Source of the DNA: Candidatus Staskawiczbacteria bacterium
GTDB lineage: Bacteria > Patescibacteriota > Minisyncoccia > Minisyncoccales > Staskawiczbacteraceae
Assembly (NCBI GenBank): GCA_026395215.1
Contig: JAPLZC010000005.1
Coordinates: 8,392-72,391, forward strand
DNA: 64,000 nucleotides
Direction of reading: 5' to 3'
Made by a program: the position numbers and the translations under genes. Below, piece by piece: positions 5,167 through 54,953 of the stretch; within the stretch, counting starts at the first letter, position 1; each line of letters begins with the position of its first letter. The notes beneath the pieces were generated by a model. It ran no database searches and was not told the origin of the DNA. It worked only from the letters and a program-made list of their open reading frames with translations.

Positions 5167-6138
5167 TTATTTTAGGAACTTTTCTATAACAGCTTTTGTT
5201 TCTGCGGTATTTTTTACTTTCATAAGTTCATCTCTAAGTTCTTTGGCTCCCCGAAAATCTTTTGCGTAAGCATGAAAATGTTTTTTAATGCTGGCAAATT
5301 TTTTATGATAATTTTTTTCTTTCCTTTCTTCCTTGTGGCATTTATCAAATATTTTGGCGTGTTCTACAATTGCTTTTAGCTTTTCTGTAACGCTGGGAAC
5401 TTTACCGCCAAAAAACCACGGATCTCCCACAACTGCCCTGCCAACCATTATGCCATCTAATCCTTTTTCTTCTGCCAATTTTTTAGCCTCCTCTAAAGAT
5501 TTAACATCACCATTTCCCAAAAGCAAAGTTTTAGGAGAAATTTTATTTCTAAGTTCTACAATTTCTCTTGCCAGCTCCCAATGAGCTTTAGAAAAATACA
5601 ATTCATCTCTAGTTCTAAAATGCACAGTAATTACAGCCGGCTCTTCTTCTAAGATTACACCAATCCATTCTTTGACTTGAATTTTGTTATATCCAATTCT
5701 AGTTTTTACAGATACCGGCAATTTACCGGCCCCTTTTTTTGTTGCCCGAATAATTTCTTTTGCCAGCTGAAAATTTTTAATTAATGCCGCTCCCCCGCCC
5801 TTTTTTTCTATATTTATATCGGGGCATCCCATATTTATATCTATCCCATCAAAACCAAGTTCTGCCATAAGTTTTGCCGATCTTTCAAAATCAGCAAAAG
5901 TTGCCCCAAAAAGCTGAGCAACTATTGGTTTCTCTTTTGGTGAATGTTCTAAAATTTTAAGACAAAATTTTCTACCTCGTGAAAATAATCCTTCTGCAGA
6001 AACAAACTCTGTCCAAAAAACATCTGGTTGCCCGTATTTCAAAAACATGAGTCTAAACGCCTCATCCGTAACCCCCGACATTGGAGCTAAGGCCATAATT
6101 GGCTTTTTTAATTTTCCCCAAAACCCTAGTTGTATCAT
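5167..6138 (-). CDS. dus: tRNA-dihydrouridine synthase
   Basis: MALAPMSGVTDEAFR, DGIDINMGCP with catalytic Cys, and Dus-family length of 323 aa. Confidence 0.9.
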   Translation of the reverse strand: MIQLGFWGKLKKPIMALAPMSGVTDEAFRLMFLKYGQPDVFWTEFVSAEGLFSRGRKFCLKILEHSPKEKPIVAQLFGATFADFERSAKLMAELGFDGIDINMGCPDINIEKKGGGAALIKNFQLAKEIIRATKKGAGKLPVSVKTRIGYNKIQVKEWIGVILEEEPAVITVHFRTRDELYFSKAHWELAREIVELRNKISPKTLLLGNGDVKSLEEAKKLAEEKGLDGIMVGRAVVGDPWFFGGKVPSVTEKLKAIVEHAKIFDKCHKEERKEKNYHKKFASIKKHFHAYAKDFRGAKELRDELMKVKNTAETKAVIEKFLK

Positions 6139-7034
6139 ATAGAAAATTTTCCTACCTTTGTTCGTTTAATAGAAAAGGCTAGCGCTGGCACTTTTATCTT
6201 TTCTCCTAATGAATTTGCCAACCCGCGCACATACGTACCGCTTGTGCATTTTACCACAAAGTCGGCAATATAAAACACCTGAGATTTGTTTTTGCCTAAC
6301 AACTTTTCCTCCCAAATTTTTAAAATTTCTTTTTGTCTAAAATCCCCGCCTGCAGCGCTATGCGCAGCATTGCGGGCAGACCCGCTGACCAGCCCAATTC
6401 TCTTCTCAATATTTAAAAATAACTTGTCGCCTTTAATCTTTTTAATCTTCCCCAAAGTCAATCTCTTCACTAGAATATCTCTTTCTGGAATTTCCACGCT
6501 CTCCCCACTTCTTGCATAACTAAATAATGGTTTACCCTTTACCATTTTTGAAGAATAAATAGGATATTTTTGTTTTAACTTACCCCTAAAATATTTTAAA
6601 TTCTTTTTTATCATCTCCGCAATAAACTCAAAGCGAGGCAGTGTATCCGTAGCGTACCCTGCAGGCAATTTCGCATGGTCCCGCGAAGCGGGGAAATTGC
6701 CGAAGCCTGAGTGAGCCCGCGCTGGCGGGCGAACGCTAGCGAAGGATACACTGCCGAGCGAAGCATCAATGACTTTTCCTAAAATATCATACGTGTCCGT
6801 GCTAAATCCAAATAGTATGCTAAACTCGTACTCCTTATCTAGCGCCAAATACTTTTCTTTATTTTTTATTTCTGGCCCAGCCAACACAACTAAAACCCCA
6901 GATGCCATTGGATCTAATCTACCCGCATATGTCATAGGCACATTCAAATATTCAGGATTTTTTACCTTAAACCCCTCCACCGCACAAAGTGGAGTTTCCC
7001 CTTCCCTTTTATTGAGTACAATTACTTTTTTCAC
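6135..7034 (-). CDS. truB: tRNA pseudouridine synthase (TruB family) carrying two in-frame GC-rich hairpin insertions
   Basis: YAGRLDPMASGVLVV carries the catalytic Asp motif, and TDTYD and YSSKMVKGKPLFSYAR are also present. GTG at 7034 is chosen because the longer ORF would overlap tRNA-Ser. Confidence 0.8.
   Translation of the reverse strand: MKKVIVLNKREGETPLCAVEGFKVKNPEYLNVPMTYAGRLDPMASGVLVVLAGPEIKNKEKYLALDKEYEFSILFGFSTDTYDILGKVIDASLGSVSFASVRPPARAHSGFGNFPASRDHAKLPAGYATDTLPRFEFIAEMIKKNLKYFRGKLKQKYPIYSSKMVKGKPLFSYARSGESVEIPERDILVKRLTLGKIKKIKGDKLFLNIEKRIGLVSGSARNAAHSAAGGDFRQKEILKIWEEKLLGKNKSQVFYIADFVVKCTSGTYVRGLANSLGEKIKVPALAFSIKRTKVGKFSI
6632..6760 (+). repeat. GA-hairpin repeat element, copy E3, inside truB
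   Basis: AGCGAGGCAGTGTATCC...GGATACACTGCCGAGCG termini, inner stems TAGCGT/ACGCTA, GGCAATTTC/GAAATTGCC, CCCGC-GAA-GCGGG and GCCCGC-GCTG-GCGGGC. Length is 129 nt, or 43 codons. Confidence 0.75.
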
Positions 7035-7041
7035 AGATTTG

Positions 7042-7126
7042 CGGAGGAGGTGAGACTCGAACTCACGAATCCTGTAAAGGATTACGGTTTTCGAAACCGT
7101 TGCAATAGCCACTATGCGACTCCTCC
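7042..7126 (-). tRNA. tRNA-Ser (anticodon CGA)
   Basis: Acceptor GGAGGAG/CTCCTCC, anticodon arm ACGGT-TTCGAAA-ACCGT, long variable arm, T-arm GTGAG-TTCGAGT-CTCAC. Confidence 0.85.
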
Positions 7127-7618: not shown

Positions 7619-7761
7619 ATTCCACTATTTTACCATCTACAGACCCCCCTGTCCAGACCTAAGCCCCATTTCCATCCCCAGCTAAAAAATGCAAAAAAAG
7701 ACCGAGAGTAGCATTGTGCCTACTCCCGGTATAACTGTCCCCTCAAGAAGGTTCAGTCCAT

Positions 7762-8748
7762 TCAGCCGCCGCCACCGACGGCTACGCTGGTACTGGCGGG
7801 TACCCATGTCTGCCGCACCTTGCCGGTCGAATCGGTGTAAACGACTCGGATGTTGCAGCTATTCTTGTCGAACCATCTATTTTGCCCCAGGGGAGCAAGG
7901 ATGGACTGTTCATCCACGTGAGTGGAATAACTGTAATATTCGACCTCGCCCAGGCTGCTATCCCAGTAGCTGAAGAAAACGACTACGCTTGTCCCGTTGG
8001 GTAGCGCGGTGTCTAGCTTGATGGAATAATTATCTTGAACTGGGTCGTATGCCCACCCGTCGAAGGTTACCGTGTCGTATGCCCAGGAGTTGTCCCCCGG
8101 ATACGACATCGCCGACATATGAGACACCGAGTTTTGGCTCGGATCCATACTGCCTGCCGGCAGGATCAACACATTCCCGAATGGAAATGAGGGATCCACG
8201 CTTACATTCCAGCCACCATGCCCATTCCAGGTAATATTCAATTCGTCCACCAACCAGGGCTGGTTGATACACACAATCCAGTAACCCGCGCTGAATTGCG
8301 CTTGGTTACCATTTACCCAGACGCCGTCAGTGGAAGCAGGTCCGTCAATTTTCAGACGTATATACCTGCTCTGGTATAAAGTTACCGGGAAGTCTTTCAT
8401 GTTCATCCCCGGTTGGAACTGAGACACTTTCCAGTCATAGGAATAAAACAATGGAAATCCGTTCCCATCGTTCCAGTACGCATACCCGCGGTACAGCCCC
8501 GGGCCAGGCGCGATGTCCATATTGAGGGACGCCACGCCGTCGGTAAAGTTAGCCGTACTGCTGTACGACCACGAACCGTCCTGGCTGTACATTTTAACCT
8601 GCAGTTTCTGAACTGCCAGGAGCGCGTTCAGCTCGTAAAGCTGTTTGCGCAAGTCGACACTAGGTGTTCCGGCCGCAAAGACCGGCTGTACCGAATTGAA
8701 GACCATCATCATCGTCGCCACCATCAGCATCATCATAATCCGTTTCAT
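7762..8748 (-). CDS. Secreted aromatic-rich protein, unknown function (GC-rich island A)
   Basis: Signal peptide MKRIMMMLMVATMMMVFNSVQPVFAAG. 328 aa, W/Y/G-rich, ends in GGGG. Hairpin plus T-run terminator at about 7694-7731. Confidence 0.6.
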   Translation of the reverse strand: MKRIMMMLMVATMMMVFNSVQPVFAAGTPSVDLRKQLYELNALLAVQKLQVKMYSQDGSWSYSSTANFTDGVASLNMDIAPGPGLYRGYAYWNDGNGFPLFYSYDWKVSQFQPGMNMKDFPVTLYQSRYIRLKIDGPASTDGVWVNGNQAQFSAGYWIVCINQPWLVDELNITWNGHGGWNVSVDPSFPFGNVLILPAGSMDPSQNSVSHMSAMSYPGDNSWAYDTVTFDGWAYDPVQDNYSIKLDTALPNGTSVVVFFSYWDSSLGEVEYYSYSTHVDEQSILAPLGQNRWFDKNSCNIRVVYTDSTGKVRQTWVPASTSVAVGGGG

Positions 8749-8780
8749 CTGAATCTCTCCTTGGTTTGTTTTTCCTACTG

Positions 8781-9182
8781 TTACTGGTTCGCCATCGCTT
8801 GCGCGATTTTCCTTCTGAGCTCCTCCTCCCGGTGCTTTTTGTTCGCAACGGTTGACATCACTGTCTTCTTCTCGTCAACTGCCTCCTTTCCTACATTGTT
8901 GGTTGTTTCAACGACATTGTTGACTGCGACCACCACATCCTGTGTGGTAACCTCGCTCGGCAACGCCATAGCACTCTCACCCGTGGTCACCACCTCTTCA
9001 GTGACAACCTCGGCTGACGGCTTCGCCGTTTTGGTAACGGCGACATCCGGCGCGAACGAATCCGCCTCCGGAGCCTTGGCAAAGTGGTCCAACCACCAGC
9101 CACCTACCACGATGAGCAATACAACAAACCCAATCATGACCAACACGGTCATTGTGTCTCTCGTCTTTTTTCCAATTTTCAT
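8781..9182 (-). CDS. Membrane-anchored V/T/E-rich protein (GC-rich island A)
   Basis: N-terminal TM segment VLVMIGFVVLLIVVGGWW. AAAGGGAC Shine-Dalgarno sequence before the ATG. Confidence 0.5.
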   Translation of the reverse strand: MKIGKKTRDTMTVLVMIGFVVLLIVVGGWWLDHFAKAPEADSFAPDVAVTKTAKPSAEVVTEEVVTTGESAMALPSEVTTQDVVVAVNNVVETTNNVGKEAVDEKKTVMSTVANKKHREEELRRKIAQAMANQ

Positions 9183-9310
9183 CTGCGTGTCCCTTTCGTT
9201 GTGTAACGTTGTGTAACCTAACTAAAACCAATTGTGAATGTACAACCCAAACCTAGACAAGGCTGGATTAAACAAAAGCGCGGTTTGCACCACACTTTTA
9301 ATTCTCGCTA

Positions 9311-12885: not shown

Positions 12886-13554
12886 ATGCTTAATAAAAGG
12901 TCAAAATATTTGCAGATAGCTTTTAACCGCTCTCTTACTGAAGTAAGAAGTATGATTGCATTACTGCCAAGCTCAGAAAAAATTCTTATTGAAGCCGGGA
13001 CACCTTTTATTAAAAGGTACGGGCAGAACGGAGTTTCATTATTAAAAGGTTGGTGGAGTGCTAAATTAGGCAAAGAAGGATATATTGTTGCCGATTTAAA
13101 ATGCATGGATAGAGGGTCTAAAGAAGTTGAATCAATGGCCATGGCCGGCGCTTCGGCAATTACATGTTTGGGGTTGGCGCCAATTGATACAATAAATCAA
13201 TTTATTGCAGAATGCGAAAAATTTGGCATTGACTCAATGATTGATATGATGAACGTAGAATTCCCATTTGAAATTTTGCAAAAGCTAAAAAAACTTCCTG
13301 CTGTAGTTGTTCTGCATCGTGGAGTAGATGAGAATGAAAAAAATAGAGAAAAACAACTCCCCCACAATCAAATACGCAGAATAAAAGGAACATACAATAA
13401 TGTTTTAATATCTGTTGCCGGAGGGGAAAAAACACGAGATGTTATCAGAACTTATTTTAATGATGCTGACATAGCAGTTATTTGGAAATCTTTTTACGAA
13501 GCGCCAAATAACACCGCCGCTTTAGCGAAGGAATTCTTAAAGCTAGTTAAATGA
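12886..13554 (+). CDS. OMP-decarboxylase/HPS (3-hexulose-6-phosphate synthase)-like TIM-barrel protein
   Basis: LQIAFNRSL..ILIEAGTPFIKRYG..IVADLKCMDRG..AGASAITCLG..SVAGGEK fits the HUMPS/KGPDC-family pattern. Confidence 0.6.
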   Translation: MLNKRSKYLQIAFNRSLTEVRSMIALLPSSEKILIEAGTPFIKRYGQNGVSLLKGWWSAKLGKEGYIVADLKCMDRGSKEVESMAMAGASAITCLGLAPIDTINQFIAECEKFGIDSMIDMMNVEFPFEILQKLKKLPAVVVLHRGVDENEKNREKQLPHNQIRRIKGTYNNVLISVAGGEKTRDVIRTYFNDADIAVIWKSFYEAPNNTAALAKEFLKLVK

Positions 13555-14477
13555 TTACGAATAAAAAAAGCTTATATATAATAATAGGACTAATTATTAT
13601 AATTGCCTTTATAATTAACCCGGCATTTGGTTTTTTTGCCGTGTGGATTCTTATAGCTATTTTATCTAAAATAAAAAAACTAAAATCTTCACAAACACCC
13701 GCAACGCTCACTGACTTAATACAAAATTTACAAAGAACTACTAATGAAGAGGCTCAGCCTTTGCTTGATAACACAGCACAAATTGTTTTACCGCAACAAA
13801 TATTACTGGCTCCCGTTGCACAAATAAAATTAGATAAAAGAAAAAAGTATCTTCATATAGCGCTTAATAGCACCCTAGAAGAAGCACAAAATATAATATC
13901 TATTCTACCAACTTCTGATAGAATTTTAATTGAAGCCGGAACACCACTCATAAAAACATATGGAACTGATGCCGTCTCAAGTATTAGAAGTATGGCTCCC
14001 GTTGGAACATATATTGTTGCTGACAACAAATGCTGTGATTTAGCCTCACGCGAGGTGGAAATGATGGCCAATGCGGGAGCTAATGCCTCTACATGCCTTG
14101 GAGTGGCTCCCATAGAAACAATAGACAGCTTTATAGAAGAATGCTCAAAGTTTGGCATTGACTCAATAGTTGATATGATGAATGTTGCAGATGCTCTTTC
14201 GGTTTTAAAAAAACTAAAAAAAATCCCCGATGTTGTTATGTTACATAGAGGCGTTGACGAAAGTGAATTCTCTAAAGAAAAACAAATCCCCTACTACCAA
14301 ATTAAACAAATAAAAGGTAGTTATGATGTTTTGGTGGCTGTGGCCGGAGGAGACACAATTAAAGAAATACAAAGCGCCATTTTTAATGACGCTGATATTG
14401 TTGTAGTTTGGAAAAACTTCTACCAAGCCGACGAGGACACCGCCCAACTAGCCCAATCCTTCCTAAAAGAAATTTAA
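13551..14477 (+). CDS. Paralogous HPS-like protein with N-terminal TM anchor and linker
   Basis: C-terminal 220 aa is collinear with the upstream paralog (LHIALNSTL..ILIEAGTPLIKTYG..IVADNKCCDL..AVAGGDT). Overlaps the upstream stop by 4 nt. Confidence 0.6.
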   Translation: MITNKKSLYIIIGLIIIIAFIINPAFGFFAVWILIAILSKIKKLKSSQTPATLTDLIQNLQRTTNEEAQPLLDNTAQIVLPQQILLAPVAQIKLDKRKKYLHIALNSTLEEAQNIISILPTSDRILIEAGTPLIKTYGTDAVSSIRSMAPVGTYIVADNKCCDLASREVEMMANAGANASTCLGVAPIETIDSFIEECSKFGIDSIVDMMNVADALSVLKKLKKIPDVVMLHRGVDESEFSKEKQIPYYQIKQIKGSYDVLVAVAGGDTIKEIQSAIFNDADIVVVWKNFYQADEDTAQLAQSFLKEI

Positions 14478-19209: not shown

Positions 19210-19758
19210 ATGCACAAATATTTAGATTTATACGACTTTATAGATTTTGCAAAAGGCAATAGAAAGTACCCGGAGAATACGGCAAATGGCTTAAAATCTG
19301 CTTTAAAAATTTTTGAAAAAGTTCTTAATTTAGACGAACTTAACTCTATAGATTTGGTTGAAGACAACATAGAAGAGATATTTATAAACGTTGTTGGCAA
19401 AAACAAAGACAAAAATATTGGCTCGCTAAACACTTATAAGGCCCGTGTACTTAAGGTAATAAAAGATTACCAAAGATATGGCGCTAACCCAAGCAAAATA
19501 CAGGGCTGGAGCATCCCCCTTCGGGGGATGTCCCGTAGGGACACAAAACCCAATAAATTTATAAGAAAAGATACACCAGATAAAGAACAAGATAAAACCC
19601 AGACAGCCTTATCTGACCATATTAACACCCCTGTGCATAAGATTGAGCTCTCGCTAAGAGACAACATGAAGTCTATGGTAGTTGTTCCCAAAGACATTAC
19701 TGCCAAAGAAATTAAAATGTTCAAAGACATCCTTGATTCTCTGTCCGTTGAGGAGTAA
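19210..19758 (+). CDS. Hypothetical protein with in-frame twin-hairpin insertion
   Basis: 182 aa with no recognisable family. Codons for ..IPLRGMSRRDT.. are supplied by the GC-rich motif at 19513-19544. Confidence 0.5.
   Translation: MHKYLDLYDFIDFAKGNRKYPENTANGLKSALKIFEKVLNLDELNSIDLVEDNIEEIFINVVGKNKDKNIGSLNTYKARVLKVIKDYQRYGANPSKIQGWSIPLRGMSRRDTKPNKFIRKDTPDKEQDKTQTALSDHINTPVHKIELSLRDNMKSMVVVPKDITAKEIKMFKDILDSLSVEE
19513..19544 (+). repeat. Twin-hairpin GC-rich motif, copy 1
   Basis: ATCCCCCTTCGGGGGAT followed by GTCCCGTAGGGAC. A near-identical inverted copy lies at 62744-62777. Confidence 0.7.
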
Positions 19759-21565: not shown

Positions 21566-21730
21566 GAGCGAGGCGGTAAGTTTCCAGCGAGGAAATAGAT
21601 TTTAAAGGCACCTTCGGAGCCCTGCCAGCATGGTTTCCGCAACAGCGGAATGGCAGGGCGAGAATGAGGCGCGTCCCGCCGCTGGGCGGGATGACGCCGG
21701 TGCCGACTAAAATTTATTTCCGAGCGAGCG
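21566..21730 (+). repeat. GA-hairpin repeat element, copy E4
   Basis: AGCGAGGAAATAGATTTT...AAAATTTATTTCCGAGCG outer stem, GGCACC/GGTGCC, CCTGCCA..TGGCAGG, TTCCGC-AACA-GCGGAA, TCCCGCC-GCTG-GGCGGGA. About 93 percent identical by eye to 54773-54953. Confidence 0.75.
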
Positions 21731-23266
21731 TTATCGGGCGTACTCAATCACTCTATTCTCTCTAATAACTACTACTTTAATTTCGCCTGGGTATTTTAGT
21801 TCTTCTTCAATTTCTGCGGCAATTGCTTTGGCAATTTTGGCAGCCTGTAAATCATCTACTCTATCAGATTTTACAAACACTCTTATTTCTCTACCTGCCT
21901 GAATGGCATAAGTTTTTTCAACGCCTTCAAATTTATTAGCAATATCTTCCAAGTCCTTCAATCTTTGTAGATAGTTTTCCATTGTATCTTTTCTAGCACC
22001 TGGGCGAGAGCTTGAAATTGCGTCAGCAACAGTAACAATAGACGCCTCCAAACTTTCTGCAGGATAATCTCCATGGTGAGACCGCATTGCTTTTATTATA
22101 GCTTCACTCTCTCCAAATTTCTCCAAAATCTTAATACCAATCTCAATGTGAGATCCTTGAATTTGTTGGTCAATTGCTTTTCCAATATCGTGCAAAAGCC
22201 CTGCTCTCTTTGCAATTTGAGTATTAACTCCCAATTCTGCTGCAATTGCTTCAGATATTAAAGCCACTTCCATTGAGTGCAATAAAACATTTTGGCCATA
22301 AGACGTTCTGTAAAACAATCTGCCCAAAATTTGAACCAATTTTTCATTTAGCCCAATAACTCCAACATCAAAAGTTGCTTTGTCTCCTGCTTCTTTTATT
22401 TTTACAGATATTTCTGCTTTGGCTTCCTCAACTTTCTCTTCAATTTTGGCTGGCTGAATTCTGCCGTCCTGAATTAATTTATCCAAGGCAACCTTAGCAA
22501 TTTGCCTTCTAATTGGGTTAAAACAAGAAATAACAACCGAGTCTGGAGTTTCATCTACAATAAGCTCAACACCAGTCAATTTCTCAAAGGTTCTTATGTT
22601 TCTGCCCTCTTTACCAATAATACGTCCCTTTAGCTCTTCATTGGCCAAAATAACGCTGGTAGTGGTCAACTCTTGCGTTTGTGGAACGGCACATTTCTGA
22701 ATTGCCAAAGCCACAATTTCTTTTGCCCTAAGTTGTAATTTATCTTGATTACCTTCTTCCAACTTCTTCATTCTTTCTAATATTTCTTTTTCTTTTTCTA
22801 CTTCAACCAAGGCCAACAATTCCTTTTTGGCATCTTCACGTGAAAGTGAAGCAACTTTTTCTAATTTACCTTCAGCCTCAAGCCTTAATTGCTCTAAGTT
22901 TTCTTTTAAAACCTTAAGTTTTTCTACCTTGTCTGTCACTTCCTTTTCTTTTTCCTCAAAAGAAGCAATTCTATCACTAAGCAATTTTTCTCTGCCCAAC
23001 AAAAGCTCTTGAGCTTTTACAAACTCTTTTCTTCTTTCATCTATATCCTTCTGAGTCCGCTCCAAAAGCTCAGAAGACTTTTTCTCCGCATTTTTTACTA
23101 AGTTTGATGTTTCTTCTTTTACATCAATAACTCTTTTTTGAAGCTTTGCTTCAAGCGACCCTGCCCTCTTTTTGGCTAAATTTTGCCGGATGTAATATCC
23201 AATAGCTATTCCCAAACCCAAAACAACCACCAAAATCACAATAAATATTATTATAGCTTGATCCAT
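21731..23266 (-). CDS. rny: Ribonuclease Y
   Basis: N-terminal TM, long coiled coil, KH domain (IIGKEGRNIRTFE) and HD domain (LLHDIGKA). 511 aa. Confidence 0.95.
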   Translation of the reverse strand: MDQAIIIFIVILVVVLGLGIAIGYYIRQNLAKKRAGSLEAKLQKRVIDVKEETSNLVKNAEKKSSELLERTQKDIDERRKEFVKAQELLLGREKLLSDRIASFEEKEKEVTDKVEKLKVLKENLEQLRLEAEGKLEKVASLSREDAKKELLALVEVEKEKEILERMKKLEEGNQDKLQLRAKEIVALAIQKCAVPQTQELTTTSVILANEELKGRIIGKEGRNIRTFEKLTGVELIVDETPDSVVISCFNPIRRQIAKVALDKLIQDGRIQPAKIEEKVEEAKAEISVKIKEAGDKATFDVGVIGLNEKLVQILGRLFYRTSYGQNVLLHSMEVALISEAIAAELGVNTQIAKRAGLLHDIGKAIDQQIQGSHIEIGIKILEKFGESEAIIKAMRSHHGDYPAESLEASIVTVADAISSSRPGARKDTMENYLQRLKDLEDIANKFEGVEKTYAIQAGREIRVFVKSDRVDDLQAAKIAKAIAAEIEEELKYPGEIKVVVIRENRVIEYAR

Positions 23267-23278: not shown

Positions 23279-23444
23279 AAGCGAGGCAATTAACTGTAGT
23301 GAGGCAGTAAGTTTCCAGAGCGAGGCAATAAACTTTTTGTAGGCCCAGGTCGACTTGCCCGAAGAGGCAAAGCGAGTTCCTGCTTGCCGAAAAAAGTTTG
23401 TTGCCGAGCGGCGATTACTGCCGAACGAAATTTGTTGCCAAGCG
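23279..23444 (+). repeat. GA-hairpin repeat element, copy E5, three nested layers
   Basis: Successive left arms are AAGCGAGGCAATTAACT, GTGAGGCAGTAAGTTTCC and AGCGAGGCAATAAACTTTTT. They are matched in reverse order by AAAAAGTTTGTTGCCGAGCG, GATTACTGCCGAACG and TTTGTTGCCAAGCG. Confidence 0.65.
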
Positions 23445-24438: not shown

Positions 24439-24669
24439 TTATTTTAGTAATTTTATGAATTCTTCTACGGTTAGCCCAGCTTGGTCTATGATTGATTTTA
24501 ATGTCTTTGGGCTCAAATCCTTCCTATGAAATGGAATTGTTACTCTCTTAGTTTTGTCTGAAACGTGTCGCAATTGGATATGACTACCGGAACAATGATA
24601 TTCAAAATAGCCTGCTCTTTTCAATGCTTTTATAGCTAATACAGAAGGTATTCTGGGGAGTTTTGGCAC
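24439..24669 (-). CDS. hicA: HicA-family mRNA interferase toxin
   Basis: 76 aa with ..AIKALKRAGYFEYHCSGSHIQLRH..VTIPFHRKDLSPKTLKSIIDQAGL.., the YcfA/HicA pattern. Confidence 0.85.
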   Translation of the reverse strand: MPKLPRIPSVLAIKALKRAGYFEYHCSGSHIQLRHVSDKTKRVTIPFHRKDLSPKTLKSIIDQAGLTVEEFIKLLK

Positions 24670-24673
24670 AAAA

Positions 24674-24901
24674 TTAAATTGCTACTTTTAATTTTTCTAT
24701 AGTGCATTTGCTGACCGACTTTTCTTTTAGCAAGGCTTCAATATAACAGCGGATAGCATCTTTTGCCATTTCTTTTGCTTCTTTTAAGTTATTTCCTTCG
24801 GTAACTAAACCGGGAAGTTTTGGAACTGTAACAGTATATCCCTGACCGTTTGGGTCAAAAACAGCCTCAAAATCATAAATTGTATCTTTTATTTTTGCCA
24901 T
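24674..24901 (-). CDS. hicB: HicB-family antitoxin
   Basis: 75 aa with ..GYTVTVPKLPGLVTEGNNLKEAKEMAKDAIRCYIEAL... Lies 4 nt upstream of hicA. Confidence 0.8.
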   Translation of the reverse strand: MAKIKDTIYDFEAVFDPNGQGYTVTVPKLPGLVTEGNNLKEAKEMAKDAIRCYIEALLKEKSVSKCTIEKLKVAI

Positions 24902-26185: not shown

Positions 26186-26331
26186 AAGCGAGGCGATAGA
26201 TTAATAGCGAGGTAGTAAGTTTTCAGCGTATTTCAGGACACAAAGTGCCTGACCTAGTGAGTTTTCCCGCGAAGCGGGACAACGAACGTTAGCAGAAAAC
26301 TTACTGCCGAGCGATATCTGATTGCCGAGCG
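26186..26331 (+). repeat. GA-hairpin repeat element, copy E7, two nested layers
   Basis: Outer stem AAGCGAGGCGATAGAT / ATCTGATTGCCGAGCG. Inner stem AGCGAGGTAGTAAGTTTTC / GAAAACTTACTGCCGAGCG. Core contains TCCCGC-GAA-GCGGGA. Confidence 0.7.
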
Positions 26332-28923: not shown

Positions 28924-30369
28924 TTATTTTTTGTTTATAGTCTCGTTGAGTATTCTGAAGATTTCGACCATTACGAAGGTGTCTTGTTTGCAGTAGGCTA
29001 AAAGTAACTGCAGTTTTTTGGCCCGCTCGGCTGGGTCTTTTCCCTGGTTCACAATATCCTGCCACCAGACATAGCCTACGGCGTTTCCGGTATAAGGCAT
29101 GTCGTCGTAACTCATTTCTGGCAACAACACATTCATTACTTTTTCAATAGAGGCTTTTCCTCTGAAATCTTTGTGAACATAATGCTGTTTAGAGAAAATA
29201 TCCATCAAGTCCTGCATTTGCCCGCAAATTCTGGTTAAAACCGATGCATACTGAGGCAACCTATCACCAATTTCTTTTGTAACGCCTTTTTCAAATTTAT
29301 CATTCCAGGCAATAACCGTTCCGGCCGGGTCAATATACTCTTCCAGCTTCTTGGCAACAGTTTCAGACGGGTCGGAGTTTTCCTGGTGCAGGTATTCTAA
29401 ATGCCTTAATTCCCCACCCTTTTTATCTATAACGTGCAAAGAAAATTGTATTGGAATTTTTTCATATGGTTTGTACCCTTTGTATATTGGTACCGCAGGA
29501 GCAAAAGTTTCATAATCAAAAAAGTATAACGGATATGTATAACCATCCAAAATTTTGGCAATCTCTTTTACGTCAATTATTGTCTCATTGGTTTTGTGCG
29601 TATGAATTTGGTTTTGCTGTGTAGGTGTAAGGTCTGAGGTGTCATCAATCTCATGCAATAAATAAGTTTTCTTTTTTACCAACGCAGTAAGTATATTTGG
29701 GCTTAACCCAATGCGCGACAAATCGTGCACAGAATACTCGGGTATCTCAGGGTGTGAGTGCCTAAACGTTTTGCAGTGCCTGCTCCTCCCAAAAAAATGG
29801 CACCTGCATCCATCTTCCGGCTCTTCTTCCTGATTTAGATACTCCTTAGCCTTCTCCATTTTGTCGGCAGTAATTTCTTTTTTGGCGGCCACTTGGTCTG
29901 TAACATCTTCAACAACAAACAACTTTTCAATATCAAGCTCTTCGCCCCTGACATATTCACTATTCAAATGAACAACATATTTATTCCCAACCTCAACTCC
30001 ACTTTTCTCCAACACAATTGTTTGAAAAGCCAAATCAGAAATATGGTCATGCGGCCTGTCTTTATCCTTCAAAGAATTTGTGGCTTTTACCTCATACAAA
30101 TCATACTTATCATTCTCTGTATTAAAAACCAAAAAATCACACCTGATTATAAACCCATCGGCCGTAAACGTCTCCTGATATTTAACATTAGGCCCTGAGA
30201 ATATTTTCAGTTTTGTCGCATACCCTTCCACAATATTCCCTTGCTCCATCATTTCCCCCGTCGCAAAATCCACCTTAAACTCCTCCATCCCCGGCCTATG
30301 CAACCTAAACCACCCATCCTTCGGACACACAAGATATTCAAGAAACCTAGATTTAGATATTAACGCCAT
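28924..30369 (-). CDS. DUF2779-family protein (RecB/Cas4-like PD-(D/E)XK N-terminus plus C-terminal DUF2779)
   Basis: ISKSRFLEYLVCPKDGWF.., DLYEVKAT (ExK), Cys cluster CRCHFFGRSRHC and YPLYFFDYETF. Confidence 0.65.
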   Translation of the reverse strand: MALISKSRFLEYLVCPKDGWFRLHRPGMEEFKVDFATGEMMEQGNIVEGYATKLKIFSGPNVKYQETFTADGFIIRCDFLVFNTENDKYDLYEVKATNSLKDKDRPHDHISDLAFQTIVLEKSGVEVGNKYVVHLNSEYVRGEELDIEKLFVVEDVTDQVAAKKEITADKMEKAKEYLNQEEEPEDGCRCHFFGRSRHCKTFRHSHPEIPEYSVHDLSRIGLSPNILTALVKKKTYLLHEIDDTSDLTPTQQNQIHTHKTNETIIDVKEIAKILDGYTYPLYFFDYETFAPAVPIYKGYKPYEKIPIQFSLHVIDKKGGELRHLEYLHQENSDPSETVAKKLEEYIDPAGTVIAWNDKFEKGVTKEIGDRLPQYASVLTRICGQMQDLMDIFSKQHYVHKDFRGKASIEKVMNVLLPEMSYDDMPYTGNAVGYVWWQDIVNQGKDPAERAKKLQLLLAYCKQDTFVMVEIFRILNETINKK

Positions 30370-30416
30370 AAAATTACTTGCCCGTCAAAATAGGTTTTAC
30401 CTTTTTGTCGGGTTAT

Positions 30417-30779
30417 TTATTTTAAAAACTCTTCCCAATGGTCCCATTTTTCTTCGCGCTCTAAGCAAAATATCTCCCAAACGGTTTCAGCGGGAAGAAA
30501 AACAAAAACATCACCATCTTTATCTTTAGGGCCATACTTCCTCATAATGGCAATAACTTTATCGTGTTCATATCTAGTCATTTCCCTGCCAAGCAAACCT
30601 TCAAAATCTTCGAGTATTCCCATAAGCTCTTCATCGGCCTCCTCGCACTCTTCTTTATATCCAGGATTATTCTTAAACTCAATAAATTCTTCTATAACAT
30701 CCTTCGGCAAAAAATCAGCAAGCGTGTGCTGGCATTTTTTATTATTCTTTGTAATTTTCCGCTTACTTTTCTTCTCCAT
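30417..30779 (-). CDS. Small acidic hypothetical protein
   Basis: 120-aa ORF with no recognisable family. Confidence 0.4.
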   Translation of the reverse strand: MEKKSKRKITKNNKKCQHTLADFLPKDVIEEFIEFKNNPGYKEECEEADEELMGILEDFEGLLGREMTRYEHDKVIAIMRKYGPKDKDGDVFVFLPAETVWEIFCLEREEKWDHWEEFLK

Positions 30780-30847
30780 AAATTTATTTTTTTTAATACT
30801 AAGGGATTATATTTCAGCATATTCCTAAAAAAGAACATTTTCAAGTT

Positions 30848-31450
30848 TTATTTAATAACTATTTCAAACTTCTCGGCATTCGGAACAGGGTTTGCCTTAA
30901 AATACTTCTTAAAATCCCTCATTACTTCAGAAGTGATTTTTCTAGGCTTTTTCTCTAAAATATATTTTACCGCAGCAATTGTATAGCCATGGCTAAATAA
31001 TACAATAAAGTTTTCTTTTTTCCTCTTTATTTTTTCTATCGCCTTACGAACCCTATCCATAAAATCAATAAAACTCTCCGCTCCTTCGCCATCATTATGC
31101 TTAGGATTGCTGTTACTCCAATATTCGGCCTTCCAAGGATCTCTCTCTATAAATGTAGTATTAAAGCACCTTTTGCCCGAAAGATAGGTAAACTCGTGAA
31201 TGGGCCACTCTTCGTGCTTAGTGTGCGGATGTTTATTCAGTAAGGGCTTTGCGGTTTCTTTTGTCCGCACATAAGGCGAAGTGATAATCAAATCCGGTGC
31301 ATTCTCAAAATGCTTTAACAATTCCTCGGCCTGTTTTTTGCCTTTCTCTGAAAGCGGGATAGACCATCCGCAAAAATCGTCAGATTTTACGCTTTCATCA
31401 GCATTCGCTGCGCTTTCCGCATGCCTTATAAACCAAATTTTCTTTTTCAT
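30848..31450 (-). CDS. Histidine phosphatase (phosphoglycerate-mutase-like) family protein
   Basis: IWFIRHAESAAN (RHG-type motif) and LFSHGYTI (second His). Confidence 0.75.
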   Translation of the reverse strand: MKKKIWFIRHAESAANADESVKSDDFCGWSIPLSEKGKKQAEELLKHFENAPDLIITSPYVRTKETAKPLLNKHPHTKHEEWPIHEFTYLSGKRCFNTTFIERDPWKAEYWSNSNPKHNDGEGAESFIDFMDRVRKAIEKIKRKKENFIVLFSHGYTIAAVKYILEKKPRKITSEVMRDFKKYFKANPVPNAEKFEIVIK

Positions 31451-31471
31451 AATGTTGTTATTTTAATAATA

Positions 31472-31780
31472 TTACTTTTCTGGCAATTTTTCATGCGCCG
31501 CATAAACACAGGCCATATTAGCATCATAAACCCTTACATCGTATCCCGAATCCCATTTTATCCAATCTTCTTGAGTTTTGGCAGACGGGTTAAACGCCCA
31601 GAACAATCTATCGGCCAACTTAATCAGTGTATCGCATTCTGCATATTTTGCATATTTTTGCCAACCAATCCAGGCATATCTTTCTTGGTCAAAAACATCC
31701 GCGTAGTGATAGACATCAATTAAGTCTATAATTGCTAATACAAATGGCGATTGTGCTTTTTCTTTTTCTATTTTTTGCAT
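31472..31780 (-). CDS. Hypothetical protein (102 aa) behind a long structured leader
   Basis: ATG at 31780 (MQKIEKEKAQSPF..). The longer track ORF would read through GC-rich leader hairpins. Confidence 0.45.
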   Translation of the reverse strand: MQKIEKEKAQSPFVLAIIDLIDVYHYADVFDQERYAWIGWQKYAKYAECDTLIKLADRLFWAFNPSAKTQEDWIKWDSGYDVRVYDANMACVYAAHEKLPEK

Positions 31781-32052
31781 ATTTTTTTCTTTTTTACTCC
31801 CAGCTGTAATTCTGTGCCGACCAACGAAAAAGCGGCTAAGAGAATTAATCCAGTTCGACAACTGAATGAAATCTCCCAACCGCCTTGGCGATCAGTCGCT
31901 TATTTCTTGTGGCTCCCCGCAGATTTCCCAGGTCGCCTACCCTCTAAAAAGAGGGAGAAACAAACGGTTTGTTTAAAACAAACAACTTTATATTTTCAAT
32001 CTACATCTTTATTATAGCATAGAAAACAGAAGTAAGCAAATCTCCTCTAAAT

Positions 32053-32658
32053 TTATTTCTTATTCTTGATTTTTCCCAATGACCAAATAATAAAATCTAA
32101 TACTTTCGTGTCTGACATCTCGTTCTTATCTTCTACATTAAAATCAGATCTAAATTTCAATATTATTTTTTTTATTTTTTCATCCTGCAATAAATCCGAA
32201 TATGCGCTCTTTAAAAATTCATAAATGCTCACGCAGGATTTAATTTTTTCGTCTTTAGTTTTTCCTTGTCTAGATTTATGAAAAACCCTTGAAACTTCTG
32301 CATCGAAAATCGGCTTACTGTTATCTAAAGTATGCAACAATTTAGTAGCAAAACTAAATTGAATCGTTTTTTGATTCTTGCTGTTTTTAAATTCATATAA
32401 TTCTAAAAGAATATCCTCTAAATTATTTTTGCCTTCTGCCATTAACTCAAAATAGTGATTCTTTATTTCGTCACTTAAGCCAGCATTATCCAATCTATAA
32501 AAAGACCTAAAAACAAACTGAAATAAAGTATTATTTTTGATATTGCCTTTTTTGTATTCGTTTTTTAAGAACAAATAAACATCAACGCTTTCCTGTGTTA
32601 TCTTTAATAAAATTTCATCCTGCTTTTTAATAATTTCTTGAATTATCTGATCTCTCAT
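32053..32658 (-). CDS. Hypothetical protein (201 aa), island-associated
   Basis: ORF 25 nt downstream of the 402-aa nuclease gene. No family recognised. Confidence 0.45.
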   Translation of the reverse strand: MRDQIIQEIIKKQDEILLKITQESVDVYLFLKNEYKKGNIKNNTLFQFVFRSFYRLDNAGLSDEIKNHYFELMAEGKNNLEDILLELYEFKNSKNQKTIQFSFATKLLHTLDNSKPIFDAEVSRVFHKSRQGKTKDEKIKSCVSIYEFLKSAYSDLLQDEKIKKIILKFRSDFNVEDKNEMSDTKVLDFIIWSLGKIKNKK

Positions 32659-32683
32659 AAATTTATTTTTAAATTATAGAACC

Positions 32684-33892
32684 CTACAACTCTGTCATTT
32701 CTATTTTTAATTTATACAACATTATAGAAACAGGAAAACGTAAGGCCTTAGCTGAAAGAGAAAGCGAGTTTTTCGCGCTATGTGCAATAATAATACCTCG
32801 AACTGTCTTGCCCATTTTTTGTGCAAGATTTCCTTCTACCCACTGCATATATCTTCCTAATTGGCCCGCGACAGCATCCGCTGCTGAATTTCTTTTTAAC
32901 TCAATAACAACAAAGTTGCCCTCTTTATCTATGGCTAAAATATCAATTGTTCCCACATCCTTAATATTATAATACTGTCCAGATCTACCATCCGAGTCAT
33001 TATACAACTCTAGCTCGCCGCCAAGTGATATTTTACCCATATTTTCAAATATAAAATTTTGAAGATCCTCCTCGTAAGTAAATCTCTCACCAGTTGTAAG
33101 GCTTTCCTTCTCACCAGAATCATCTACCCCTTCCGGCGCCGTAGTATCAGAATCTATTGCTTCAACATCAACTCCTACGACATCTTCTTTCTGCATAATC
33201 TGTGCTACAACATAAATAACATCTTGAGTTATCCATCTAAATTCATCGTCCTGAAAGGTAAGCCCACTCGTTAATGCATCCTTGATAGCTGAAATTTCAT
33301 TATTTTGCTTCAAATACTCTCTCATATCTTCAATTTTTGGTAAATATGCTTCGTATCTTTCTCCATCGGAAGTGTGGCCTGGAATTGAGAAATCGTTGTC
33401 TAGGAACTTACAGAAAATATTCCATTCCCGTGGCTTCAAGGCATTATGTAACATCGGATATCGATAACTCAGCAAAAGACTAAGGAATCTAATTCCAATA
33501 AAACTATGAGAGCTTTCGCCCAATCGTTTATTTCGTAACAACATAAGCTCATCAAATGATTTTTTTGTTTCGTTTATTCTCTTAGAAACTTTTTTATTAT
33601 CGTCAAATAGATTTCTTAGGATTTGGCGCGTTTCATCAGGGTTTTCTGTGGCAAAAATCAATAACATTTTTCTAGGAAAATACCAGCTACCAGCCACAAG
33701 ATTATTATTAACTATGGATGACTCAAGCATTGATACCAAATCATCAGCTTCTATGTTGAAGTTACGCATAAAAGTATCCACGGCCTTAAATTTATAACCC
33801 TCCTGATTTTTTACGTGCTCTTCAACTCCAATATCGGAAACATGTTTAAGAAATATCTTTACCCATTCTTGAATTTTTTCTTGATTAATCAT
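32684..33892 (-). CDS. NucS-C/DUF91-type PD-(D/E)XK nuclease with variable N-terminal domain (paralog 1)
   Basis: C-terminus reads VGTIDILAIDKEGNFVVIELKRNSAADAVAGQLGRYMQWV (D..ExK plus the QxxxY helix as in NucS). The N-terminus resembles the module seen on McrB-like restriction ATPases (..NLVAGSWYFPRKMLLIF..PDETRQILRNLFDD..). Confidence 0.65.
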   Translation of the reverse strand: MINQEKIQEWVKIFLKHVSDIGVEEHVKNQEGYKFKAVDTFMRNFNIEADDLVSMLESSIVNNNLVAGSWYFPRKMLLIFATENPDETRQILRNLFDDNKKVSKRINETKKSFDELMLLRNKRLGESSHSFIGIRFLSLLLSYRYPMLHNALKPREWNIFCKFLDNDFSIPGHTSDGERYEAYLPKIEDMREYLKQNNEISAIKDALTSGLTFQDDEFRWITQDVIYVVAQIMQKEDVVGVDVEAIDSDTTAPEGVDDSGEKESLTTGERFTYEEDLQNFIFENMGKISLGGELELYNDSDGRSGQYYNIKDVGTIDILAIDKEGNFVVIELKRNSAADAVAGQLGRYMQWVEGNLAQKMGKTVRGIIIAHSAKNSLSLSAKALRFPVSIMLYKLKIEMTEL

Positions 33893-33922
33893 ATATTTTT
33901 ATTTCTCGATTAATTTTTTTAT

Positions 33923-34090
33923 TTAATTTTTAAAATCGCTTTCGTCGGGCGTTAAAACATCCAAAAAAATTATCGCTAGAATAGAGAATACAATCCCCAT
34001 TGGCAAAAAACCATACTTTTTCAGCACAAACGCGCAAGCCACCGCCCCCACTATTTCTATTATAATCCTAAACCTAAAAGCTATCTCCAT
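33923..34090 (-). CDS. Possible 55-aa two-TM micro-protein
   Basis: By-eye translation gives MEIAFRFRIIIEIVGAVACAFVLKKYGFLPMGIVFSILAIIFLDVLTPDESDFKN*. No clear Shine-Dalgarno sequence. Below the ORF-track length cutoff. Confidence 0.3.
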   Translation of the reverse strand: MEIAFRFRIIIEIVGAVACAFVLKKYGFLPMGIVFSILAIIFLDVLTPDESDFKN

Positions 34091-34102
34091 TTTTACAATC
34101 AA

Positions 34103-34597
34103 TTAATTTTTATCTTTATGAGTCGGAATAAAGGTTACCTCGCACTCTACTTTTTGGTCTTCCTTATCTGCGGTATCATCTTCATCAACATCATCCTCGC
34201 AATAGTGACCAGCAAACTTTTTGCCCCATTCCCAACGGCATTTTTTGCAATGCCATTCAGGGTCTTCACCCGTAATACAACACCCACCCCAATAAATATC
34301 TATTCTTTCATTAAGCTCTACGCTATGTTCACCATACTCAATTTTTAAAACTTCGGCCGATCCACACTTTGGACACTTTTTAGGATTTAATTTTAAAATT
34401 TCAATTTTTTTCATCCAATTATCCAGCTCCTCTTTCATAAGAACTATTTCATCATACTCATATTCATCAACCCCCTCTAAAAAATCCGTAAATTTTTCAA
34501 ATACAATATCCGTAAGATCTTCACTAATATACTTATCTATTTCTTCCCGCGTTACCTCATTTTTTGTTTCCATAATTTTATTTTTCATATTTATCAA
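34103..34597 (-). CDS. Acidic protein with C-terminal zinc ribbon
   Basis: CPKCGSAEV...CCITGEDPEWHCKKCRWEW. Overlaps the upstream HNH gene by 20 nt. Confidence 0.55.
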   Translation of the reverse strand: MINMKNKIMETKNEVTREEIDKYISEDLTDIVFEKFTDFLEGVDEYEYDEIVLMKEELDNWMKKIEILKLNPKKCPKCGSAEVLKIEYGEHSVELNERIDIYWGGCCITGEDPEWHCKKCRWEWGKKFAGHYCEDDVDEDDTADKEDQKVECEVTFIPTHKDKN

Positions 34598-34952
34598 TAT
34601 AATTTTTTACGACCTTAGCGACGGCAGAATAATTTATATTTTTTTCTTTACAATAATCTTTTTTAAACCAATCCCGTAAGCTTTGGTCTTTTCTATTTGT
34701 ATTGCAATCCCAACAACAAATCGCAGTAATTTCACAGACCGGTTTGCCCTTGTTAACATAATCCCTTATGCTAACCCAATTTTTTTTATGATTAAGATGT
34801 TCAAATGTAGCACAATTCCTTATATTATTTGGGTCCCAGGAAAAAAGCATTTTTTTATGACAATATACACAATTAGTGTCTCTCTTTTTAATTTCTTCAA
34901 AATCATTTACTGGAATCCCATATTTATTTTTATAATACTGGCTATTCTGCAT
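34578..34952 (-). CDS. HNH-type nuclease-like protein
   Basis: TNCVYCHKKM..ATFEHLNHK..CCWDCNTNRKDQSLRDWF, with CxxC..H..N..CxxC-N spacing. Confidence 0.6.
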   Translation of the reverse strand: MQNSQYYKNKYGIPVNDFEEIKKRDTNCVYCHKKMLFSWDPNNIRNCATFEHLNHKKNWVSIRDYVNKGKPVCEITAICCWDCNTNRKDQSLRDWFKKDYCKEKNINYSAVAKVVKNYIDKYEK

Positions 34953-34954
34953 TT

Positions 34955-36139: not shown

Positions 36140-36143
36140 ATTT

Positions 36144-37088: not shown

Positions 37089-37093
37089 AAGAA

Positions 37094-41122: not shown

Positions 41123-41161
41123 TATTATCTCCAGTTTAGTCCTAAATCGGGTTGGGTTCAA
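41123..41161 (-). repeat. Upstream box (U-box), copy 1
   Basis: Minus strand reads TTGAACCCAACCCGATTTAGGACTAAACTGGAGATAATA. Near-identical to 42494-42533. Readable as TTGAAC-17-TAAACT. Confidence 0.6.
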
Positions 41162-41696: not shown

Positions 41697-41904
41697 TTGA
41701 TATTCCTTTCTTGTCAAAGAGCAACCCATTTGCTCCTTTATTCTCCTTAATTTAAGCTTACTACTAACCATGGGTTTGTCAATCCTTCGACTCCCTTCGA
41801 CTACGCTCAGGGCAGGCGCTCAGGACAGGTAATTTCTCTGGCAAACAAAATCGGCTCAGCGCACCCAAGGGGTACCCGGCCGATGAGCCGATTGGGGAGA
41901 TTAA

Positions 41905-47808: not shown

Positions 47809-48039
47809 ATGGCAAAAAGTGTATTTAATTGGACATTCAGTGATGTAGAAAAATTATTAAGAGAAAACCACTTCTCTCTTTCTAATATCAAAGGAAGCCA
47901 TTATTATTACACTGGAAATTATGGTCATCAGCCAAGAATCGTACAAGTTCCACGCCATAGTTCAAAATCGTTAAAACCAAGAACATTCAAGGCAATAGTG
48001 AAACAATCAGGAATACCCCTCAAAATCTGGTTGGAGTAA
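47809..48039 (+). CDS. hicA: HicA-like toxin
   Basis: ..LLRENHFSLSNIKGSHYYYTG..VQVPRHSSKSLKPRTFKAIVKQSGI... Confidence 0.7.
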   Translation: MAKSVFNWTFSDVEKLLRENHFSLSNIKGSHYYYTGNYGHQPRIVQVPRHSSKSLKPRTFKAIVKQSGIPLKIWLE

Positions 48040-53884: not shown

Positions 53885-53895
53885 TAAGTAATAAA

Positions 53896-54680: not shown

Positions 54681-54772
54681 CGCATTTTGACGGACCCGTC
54701 ACAATTCCCGCAAAGCGGGATTTGGTCGGGGACAAAAAACCCGCTTAATGCGGGTTTTTTTAGTGAGACAAT

Positions 54773-54953
54773 AAGCTTTCCAAGAGCGAGGAAATGAATT
54801 TTAAAGGCACCTTCGGAGCATCGCCAGCATGGTTTTCGCAACAGCGAAATGGCGAGGCGAGAATGAGGCGCGTCCCGCCGCTGGGCGGGACGACGCCGGT
54901 GCCGACTAAAATTTATTTCCGAGCGATGTTAGCTGGAAATTTACTGCCGAGCG
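54773..54953 (+). repeat. GA-hairpin repeat element, copy E8
   Basis: Core is collinear with E4. An additional right half-layer GGAAATTTACTGCCGAGCG pairs with a degenerate left partner GTGAGACAATAAGCTTTCC. Confidence 0.75.

Follow-up and report, generated by a model that had tools for sequence, protein, structure and literature searches.

A structure-defined family of hairpin repeats in Candidatus Staskawiczbacteria, with one copy in frame inside truB

The locus and its host gene

The DNA analysed here is a 64-kb stretch (called the window, and meant at its full length) from a metagenome-assembled genome of Candidatus Staskawiczbacteria, and our subject is E1, a 129-nt GC-rich hairpin element that lies inside truB, together with the repeat family to which it belongs. 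A first-pass annotation of the letters alone had put the element within a TruB-family open reading frame (ORF) of a genome like those of the candidate phyla radiation (CPR). The origin of the window bears out the latter point, and for the former Pfam (TruB_N, E=1.9e-28), TIGR00431 (E=2.5e-35) and an alignment to E. coli TruB agree. The sole long ORF spanning E1 runs over 6135..7112 on the minus strand; a tRNA-Ser gene at 7041-7126 is overlapped by the upstream part of this ORF, and truB therefore most likely starts at the GTG at 7037 (Table 1). An identical protein is found under the NCBI tag NTW11_00645.

Three blocks of the window protein align to the E. coli TruB structures (1r3f/1k8w), residues 5-92 to 14-98, residues 137-193 to 102-158 and residues 260-299 to 170-209, so that residues 93-136 of the query are extra; they correspond to the 129-nt element and fall between E. 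coli residues 98 and 102. In an alignment of orthologues the window protein keeps the catalytic RLDP motif and every invariant TruB column. AlphaFold2 modelled the core blocks with a predicted local distance difference test score (pLDDT) of 83-94, while residues 83-131 and 220-231, and with them this insert and a second one described below, had a pLDDT below 50 and no secondary structure. Modelling had been proposed as a way to see whether the inserts map to surface loops, and the model places both in disordered loops on a confident TruB core. The window truB is thus an intact gene, with the pseudouridine synthase core left whole. That the insert is an assembly artefact, or truB a pseudogene, is scarcely credible to us: the window does come from a metagenome-assembled genome and palindromes can misassemble, but independent JGI, ENA and NCBI assemblies have family elements at the same codon position, and the open frame, the RLDP motif, the retained invariant residues and the confident core give no sign of a pseudogene.

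Table 1. Positions in the window of truB, its inserts and the copies of the repeat family.
Feature	Position	Strand	Remarks
truB coding sequence (host gene)	6135..7037	minus	300 codons, GTG at 7037
Second in-frame insert in truB	6345..6380, +/-3 nt	+	36-nt GC-rich hairpin (CCCGC...GCGGG); adds SARNAAHSAAGG
Degenerate 5' arm of older outer shell	6613..6631	+	ATCTCCGCAATAAACTCAA; encodes FEFIAEM
E1: one shell and type-A core, 129 nt	6632..6760	+ (G.A-foot strand)	predicted to be translated from the minus strand as 43 TruB codons
E1 5' shell arm	6632..6648	+	AGCGAGG (foot) and CAGTGTATCC (stem)
E1 type-A core	6651..6741	+	AGCGTACCCTGCAGG...CGAACGCTAGCG; several hairpins; ~90% identical to copies at five other loci
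E1 3' shell arm	6744..6760	+	GGATACACTG (stem) and CCGAGCG (foot)
E2: two shells, inner unit 21586-21726 (type C)	21567..21740	+	between LysE-type gene (+) and RNase Y gene (-)
E3: three nested shells, inner unit 23319-23410 (type B, 92 nt)	23280..23444	+	between RNase Y and ClpP genes, both minus
E4: two shells, inner unit 26206-26313 (type D, core related to type A)	26187..26331	+	upstream of trigger factor gene
E5: two shells, inner unit 54785-54925	54763..54953	+	4 nt from stop of UPF0102 (YraN-like) gene, minus

An insertion in a tolerant loop

E1 begins with AGCGAGGCAGTGTATCC (6632-6648) and ends with GGATACACTGCCGAGCG (6744-6760), and these 17-nt arms pair fully apart from one tandem G.A/A.G. 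It spans 43 codons in the truB frame with zero stops; the translation contains ...ASLGSVSFASVRPPARAHSGFGNFPASRDHAKLPAGYATDTLPRFEF... between the flanking TDTYDILGK and YSSKMVKGKP, an example of a peptide predicted from the translated insert being SVSFASVRPPAR. The boundaries, termini and stop-free 43 codons first described for the element stand, with one refinement. The stretch at 6613-6631 is orthologous to AGCTCGGCAATAAACTCAG in the related locus L084 and to a canonical arm, AGCGAGACAATAAACTCAG, in L004, and is therefore the degenerate arm of an outer shell, so that the element-derived sequence exceeds 6632-6760. In the AlphaFold2 model the FEFIAEM stretch that it encodes is placed at the start of a TruB helix.

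Comparison with orthologues, by which the first-pass annotation had wished its insertion boundaries to be judged, shows that E1 is not an ancestral region of TruB and that it was inserted into a tolerant surface loop. Among the top 111 TruB orthologues the loop at this position (site 1) is short in 99 and long in 12; typical orthologues have 245-256 residues and no E1 segment, and in the close relatives L085, L086 and L005 the site is cleanly empty, with zero trace of an element. An ancestral or lineage-specific TruB domain under selection at the protein level has next to no probability left, even though an extension of ~55 residues relative to E. coli TruB, at the second site, is native to the clade. 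Such a domain is refuted by the 99 short loops, by the occurrence of the same DNA in another frame in the truB of L002 and by its presence in mnmA and in intergenic spacers; moreover, AlphaFold2 predicts the insert to be without structure.

The smaller GC-rich hairpin that had also been noticed in truB is a lineage-specific in-frame insert as well. Empty orthologues read AAG GGT GAT (K-G-D) at this second site, where the window has 36 extra bases at ~6345-6380. GC hairpins of 21-39 nt stand at exactly that K-G-D point in the window, L003, L008 and L052, no two of them alike, and the window hairpin stands outside the G.A-foot family described next.

A repeat family defined by structure

A scan of the window for foot plus stem found five loci, E1 to E5, all on the + strand, as against 0.1 in shuffled sequences. 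The end motifs are likewise enriched, with 12 occurrences of AGCGAGG against 3.3 expected and 10 of CCGAGCG against 1.8 expected. Each shell of the family is bounded by 5'-AGCGAGG...CCGAGCG-3', and these 7-nt feet are not perfect complements of one another: positions 2-3 and 6-7 form Watson-Crick pairs (the latter two G-C), while positions 4-5 form a tandem G.A/A.G in a 5'-CGAG-3' context. Such a context gives a stable sheared tandem-G.A motif in RNA and DNA alike. Above the foot stands a stem of 8-15 bp, the sequence of which varies among copies while its complementarity is kept.

In a set of 22 shells from ten loci, 95.2% of the stem cells were paired and nine of ten pairs had changed on both sides, a result reached by none of 500 shuffles; when the stem register was slid, pairing dropped to 24-51%. 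Within the foot, the C3-G pair becomes U-A in two shells, and the tandem G.A/A.G is retained in 19 of 21 distinct shells and replaced by Watson-Crick pairs in none. Inside the shells lie interiors of at least four types (A to D), which have only sub-hairpins in common. The type-A core of E1 includes a second tandem-G.A helix, GUGAG-[CCCGCGCUGGCGGG]-CGAAC, and the fold of E1 has a z-score against shuffles of -4.1 with RNA and -5.2 with DNA parameters. The inner unit of E5 is 93% identical to that of E2; the degenerate outer 3' arm of E2 (21727-21740) overlaps the RNase Y gene (21731-23266, minus) at its final codons and stop. Overall the elements are 48-170 nt long, GC-rich and non-coding, with about one copy per 10 kb. 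The repeats hence form a family that is defined by structure, namely a foot, a covarying stem and usually a conserved multi-hairpin core, and not by sequence.

This structure-defined family appears to be previously undescribed, and the literature searched, with few subscription journals covered, holds no description of such elements in CPR/Patescibacteria. At the gathering threshold Rfam returned only tRNAs for the whole window, and E1 had no meaningful match at E<=10. One known structure was considered and rejected: the hammerhead model has a CUGANGA...GAAA core with an A15.1-U16.1 pair, and the E1 core, CUGAGUGAG-stem-CGAAC, resembles it but has one extra base and C-G in place of A15.1-U16.1, again with zero Rfam match.

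Dispersal of the core and constraint on the nucleic acid

Copies of the type-A core were sought in a metagenome collection with a 20-mer from E1, and one locus (L096) was added via its MnmA protein. The core occurs in the spacer between atpD and atpC (L087), in the spacer that precedes a GatB/YqeY-like gene (L088, to which L090 is identical), within mnmA and in its frame (L091, L092 and L096), and in truB at the position that E1 occupies in the window (L002); a further match, L089, was a chance one. Six aligned copies are ~90% identical, with a stretch of 44 nt that is almost invariant, and each has a different shell stem that is complementary within itself. Within the core, too, there are substitutions that compensate one another and one paired deletion that does so, GGCAATTTT/AAAATTGCC versus GGCATTTT/AAAATGCC.

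The same core is read in two frames, the first (FASVRPPARAHSGFG) in the window truB and the L096 mnmA and the second (LAFARQRGLTQASA) in the L002 truB and the L091 and L092 mnmA. Between L091 and L092, mnmA outside the insert has a nucleotide identity of 0.69, a third-position identity of 0.47 and an amino-acid identity of 0.69, while inside the insert the values are 0.83, 0.83 and 0.69; for truB, the window and L002 compare at 0.71, 0.57 and 0.68. Since one core serves in two frames and evolves far more slowly than synonymous sites, it is the nucleic acid that is constrained and not the peptide. The third antisense frame of type A has a TAG and is never used, and all three frames of the G.A strand have stops; inside genes type A therefore survives only in antisense orientation and in two frames.

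These frame and stop statistics make it most likely that E1 is translated as a disordered loop of 43 residues. Coding copies with a single shell measure 129, 126 and 129 nt, all divisible by three (intergenic copies measure 127 and 129 nt), and each of the dozens of TruB and MnmA genes that bear inserts retains one open frame. The orthologues were taken from called proteins, a sample biased to intact frames; two mnmA copies that were detected through their DNA pattern alone, and so escape this bias, also keep the frame. A different view is that the insert is lost ahead of translation or in its course, excised like an intron or bypassed by the ribosome as in yeast mitochondrial byp or T4 gene 60, to give a TruB without the 43 residues. 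A very stable GC-rich hairpin within an AT-rich gene and nucleotide conservation irrespective of reading frame would fit this, but lengths divisible by three, the use of only the two stop-free antisense frames, the single open frame kept in every insert-bearing gene and zero matches to a ribozyme or intron model in Rfam make removal very improbable.

Beyond the window, L001-L004 and the metagenome loci also gave family copies in the foot-plus-stem scan. The same scan of 79 more distant Paceibacteria truB loci (1.2 Mb) gave essentially no family copies, and scans of viral contigs gave no real copy, the sole match being a chance one, without a hairpin, on a contig with 56% GC. Searches for other host proteins by the insert peptide were uninformative: a word-index search with the 44-residue peptide returned zero candidates, and an exhaustive HMMER search with the other frame returned six weak matches to long repetitive proteins.

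Hotspot loops and nested shells

The TruB loop that carries E1 holds family members in the window, in L001-L004 and in P0005, P0006, P0008 and P0012, and their contents differ. Core A occupies it in the window and in L002, while L001, L003 and L004 have the 92-nt type-B unit, which in the window is intergenic (the inner part of E3). One and the same shell, GATAATGAATTC, surrounds core A in L002 and a complete type-B unit in L003. In L084, the closest relative (78% identity), only two 5' arms are left at the truB site.

An even stronger hotspot is found in MnmA, at its GHY...KDQSYF loop. The insert lies between residues 142 and 144 of MnmA structure 9hln, and the loop is elongated by 9-64 extra residues in 73 of 114 close orthologues (P0127-P0246), at least 32 of these 73 showing the footprints of the feet, SLG.../...LPR. 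The mnmA of L094 has an empty shell of 48 nt, AGCGAGGCAATAAATTTTTT-GCTAGC-AAAAAAATTTGATTGCCGAGCG, where other genomes have shell and core, and that of L095 has a decayed remnant of a family element. If units were inserted again and again into the apex of hairpins already present, nested shells, empty shells and swapped interiors would result. In a poorly resolved neighbour-joining tree of TruB with the inserts masked, the insert bearers lie among orthologues with empty sites and were monophyletic in 0 of 100 bootstraps.

Both loops also hold inserts of other kinds. At site 1 in distant Paceibacteria TruB (L065, L069, L074, L077 and L079; also L056, L007 and L009) there are long palindromes of other families, one of which has TTTGAAAGGTCCTCGG...CCGAGGACCTTTCAAA and the peptide F[EK]RSS...; L069 has two palindrome copies in a TruB loop of 121 residues, and the palindrome of L056 is AT-rich. 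Across the class, then, palindromes have been inserted in frame at this loop repeatedly. In MnmA, P0155, P0164, P0224 and P0162 have a different insert peptide in the same loop, ...SLRGRS.ATDEAI.SYRLPRR...APRND..., which resembles what a further GC-rich family of palindromic repeats would encode.

Orientation and strand

E1 was initially read as antisense to the truB mRNA, and it is so, the G.A strand being the + strand and truB lying on the minus strand. This orientation is general: the G.A strand is antisense to the local genes in all 18 copies that can be decided (those in truB and mnmA, E3, E4, L001:411-506, both L087 copies, L088 and L092:5253-5392), with three further copies in convergent spacers left outside the count. 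In L001 two copies lie on opposite DNA strands and each follows the direction of the local gene, so that the bias is tied to transcription and not to the replichore. Inside genes, stops account for the antisense bias of type A; for the seven intergenic copies they do not. Several intergenic copies lie 3-7 nt past a stop codon.

In eight of eight elements folding is better for the G.A strand than for its complement, with RNA and DNA parameters alike. In type-A copies alone the wobble pairs are balanced between the strands, while over all shells the G.A strand has 16 G.T wobbles against 5 A.C, in copies that are related and not independent. As the strand that folds best is always antisense, it is never in the host mRNA. 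This could have come about if the G.A hairpin were selected against, be it in transcripts or in single-stranded DNA that is exposed, if insertion were specific to one strand, or if read-through transcripts were copied into an intermediate of single-stranded DNA.

Strict orientation, the position of several copies just past stop codons, the near-invariance of 44 nt of the core across six copies that come from different genomes and whose shells diverged with compensation, and the third-position identity of 0.83 inside against 0.47 outside the insert at one mnmA site in two diverged genomes could all be expected of resident functional structured nucleic acids, such as antisense small RNAs, protein-binding sites or mRNA-structure elements, for which presence in coding loops would be secondary. 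So could the outcome of the search for a mobilising enzyme in the window, given below. We nevertheless think this unlikely. Four unrelated core types (A to D) share one shell design, different cores occupy the same site in different genomes, orthologous sites differ by presence and absence and hold decayed remnants (L084 and L095), no promoter or terminator signature came to light, in an analysis that made no search aimed at one, no Rfam family matches even at E<=10, and the better-folding strand is not co-transcribed with the host genes.

Mobility and its mechanism

We give a probability of about 0.75 to the reading that E1 is a copy of a dispersed hairpin-repeat family of a Candidatus Staskawiczbacteria subclade, lodged in a permissive TruB loop and mobile in trans now or recently. 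By this account some enzyme would act in trans on the folded single strand, and the tandem-G.A foot would mark the strand and the ends for it, as happens in REP/RAYT systems (repetitive extragenic palindromic sequences and their REP-associated tyrosine transposases), at the ends of IS200/IS605 insertion sequences (IS) and in integron attC sites. New units would enter the apex of resident shells by preference, from which nested shells and hotspots would follow, and coding copies would persist only in tolerant loops and in stop-free orientation and frames.

Several points weigh against this reading. Of the 74 ORFs in the window 70 were searched with Pfam, and the search gave no transposase, HUH nuclease, integrase or reverse transcriptase, and in particular neither a RAYT (Y1 HUH) gene or TnpA nor a cognate autonomous IS that could be the parent. 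The flanks of 10 copies show only 0-2 nt A/T matches where a target-site duplication would lie, indistinguishable from the AT-rich background. [quoted passage not shown] Strong conservation at one site in diverged genomes could reflect a resident function or repeated re-invasion, and the elements may not be selfish DNA at all. The inserts-masked TruB tree is poorly resolved, so that gains and losses are uncountable, and transcription and translation of the E1 insert are inferred, not observed.

A two-part system is a possible but doubtful elaboration. Here the tandem-G.A shells would be landing pads, and cores or units would be inserted or exchanged at the apex (GCTAGC) by an enzyme that reads the folded single strand, with complementary DNA (cDNA) from read-through transcripts as the intermediate, or else with the cores acting as host DNA or RNA signals. 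Local genes always have the better-folding G.A strand as their template, so that host read-through transcripts could be copied into a mobile cDNA intermediate, which would account for the strict orientation without a promoter in the element.

Relation to known systems

Of the systems already described, the nearest to the present family are the Rickettsia palindromic elements (RPEs), on which Ogata et al. reported in 2000. RPEs are dispersed palindromic repeats that lie in frame within surface loops of proteins, and each RPE family is described as coding for a conserved peptide in one frame (PMC10969869). The analogy to RPEs that had been drawn for E1 is sound. RPE-1 to RPE-10 are palindromic non-autonomous repeats of ~100-150 nt, dispersed in a small AT-rich genome, with many copies in frame in unrelated housekeeping genes at fold-compatible positions; correspondingly, E1 has 129 nt, the family has five loci in 64 kb and copies at more than ten other loci, and its insert positions in TruB and MnmA are compatible with the fold, the TruB inserts being disordered loops in the AlphaFold2 model. 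A transposase is known for neither. The families differ in that the present core is read in two frames and conserved as nucleotide sequence and structure, whereas the RPE peptide is kept in one frame, and in that the present host belongs to Patescibacteria/CPR and not to the genus Rickettsia. To our knowledge, no RPE has been described with a tandem-G.A foot and covarying stems, nested shells, an empty shell or strict antisense orientation.

MITEs (among them Correia, ERIC, BOX, RUP and Nezha) are likewise small, non-coding and dispersed and have terminal inverted repeats, and some occasionally lie within genes as in-frame fusions (PMC10969869). Their terminal repeats are conserved in sequence, for transposase binding, and they are flanked by target-site duplications, whereas the present family conserves only 7 nt per end, the other arm positions covarying, and has neither a consistent target-site duplication nor a parent IS in the window. 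Closest to the mechanism proposed here we consider REP sequences and bacterial interspersed mosaic elements (BIMEs) with RAYT (TnpA-REP), the IS200/IS605 ends and palindrome-associated transposable elements (PATEs), in all of which an HUH Y1 enzyme reads strand-specific hairpins in folded single-stranded DNA; they too have a short conserved motif at the foot of an imperfect palindrome. REPs, however, have 20-40 nt, a 5' GTAG and extragenic positions, while the present elements have 48-170 nt and a foot of AGCGAGG/CCGAGCG, are nested and often lie in coding regions.

Integron attC sites share with the present family a definition by structure, conserved short terminal boxes, covarying stems, variable lengths (57-141 nt) and non-canonical or extrahelical bases that mark the recombining strand. 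The attC boxes R''/R' (RYYYAAC / GTTRRRY) are absent from the present elements, whose termini are AGCGAGG...CCGAGCG; moreover, the copies are solitary or nested and inside genes rather than in cassette arrays, and the window has no integrase. The mobile GC clusters of yeast mitochondria, with byp, are GC-rich hairpins that invade genes of an AT-rich genome, sometimes in frame (var1). They belong to another genetic system and have other sequences, and byp is bypassed by ribosomes, whereas the present statistics favour read-through.

Other repeats and genes in the window

By their Pfam matches, the ORFs searched comprise housekeeping genes, a restriction/nuclease island and two genes for HicA toxins, one of which is paired with HicB. 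The first HicA/HicB pair lies at 24439-24901 and the second HicA gene at 47809-48039. The island (28924-41161) encodes a Cas4-like/DUF2779 protein, two NucS_C/PD-(D/E)xK proteins and a 1355-residue fusion of ResIII with an Eco57I-type restriction-modification protein, and short direct repeats ATTTTTATTTCTCAATTAATTT (families D7 and D12) stand upstream of several of its genes. Between 43428 and 48131 a unit of ~47 nt, AAAAAAAAGACGCTTATTTGATTCAGCGTC, occurs at 43428, 45111, 45685 and 46522; together with two identical 37-nt terminator-like hairpins at 47395 and 48060, these units flank small ORFs that include the second HicA.

Further hairpin repeats are found as well. A 39-nt double-hairpin repeat, GAGCATCCCCCTTCGGGGGATGTCCCGTAGGGACACAAA, occurs as an inverted pair with 90% identity (19498-19545 and 62726-62779); its copies lie in different ORFs (19210-19758, +, and 62257-62823, -) both oriented alike with respect to their ORFs, and may also have been inserted in frame as hairpins. 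A palindromic unit based on ACCGCTTAAGCGGT is present in at least seven copies, at 53894-54341, 55822-55852 and 57861-57891, several of them arrayed within an ORF without a Pfam match (54000-54680). In a window of ~37% GC, short GC-rich hairpins lie in or beside the conserved genes dprA (58085-58114), nusA (51936-51988) and the UPF0102 gene (55198-55237), as well as at 63947-63978 and 41788-41830, and CCCTTCGACTACGCTCAGGGCAGGC recurs in inverted form at 41793-41817 and 63950-63974. Two Pfam spans exceed their profiles, NusA_N with 155 residues against 118 and UPF0102 with 101 against 80, which hints at more inserts. The region 7700-9200, with a GC content of 0.52 against ~0.37 for the window and two ORFs without a Pfam match (7762-8748 and 8781-9182), is possibly foreign DNA. 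At 12886-14477 two adjoining genes of the OMP-decarboxylase/HUMPS family have a common segment of 177 nt with 70% identity.

Implications

In-frame invasion of housekeeping proteins by palindromes, known mainly from Rickettsia, would operate at large scale in CPR/Patescibacteria. For CPR annotation and phylogenomics this would mean that proteins hold unrecognised, non-homologous inserts in differing frames. The insertion sites in TruB and MnmA are natural markers for loops that tolerate insertion. Furthermore, the conserved non-canonical foot, covarying stems, nesting, empty shell and absolute orientation offer an entry to a structure-specific mechanism of recombination or mobility in organisms that are unculturable.

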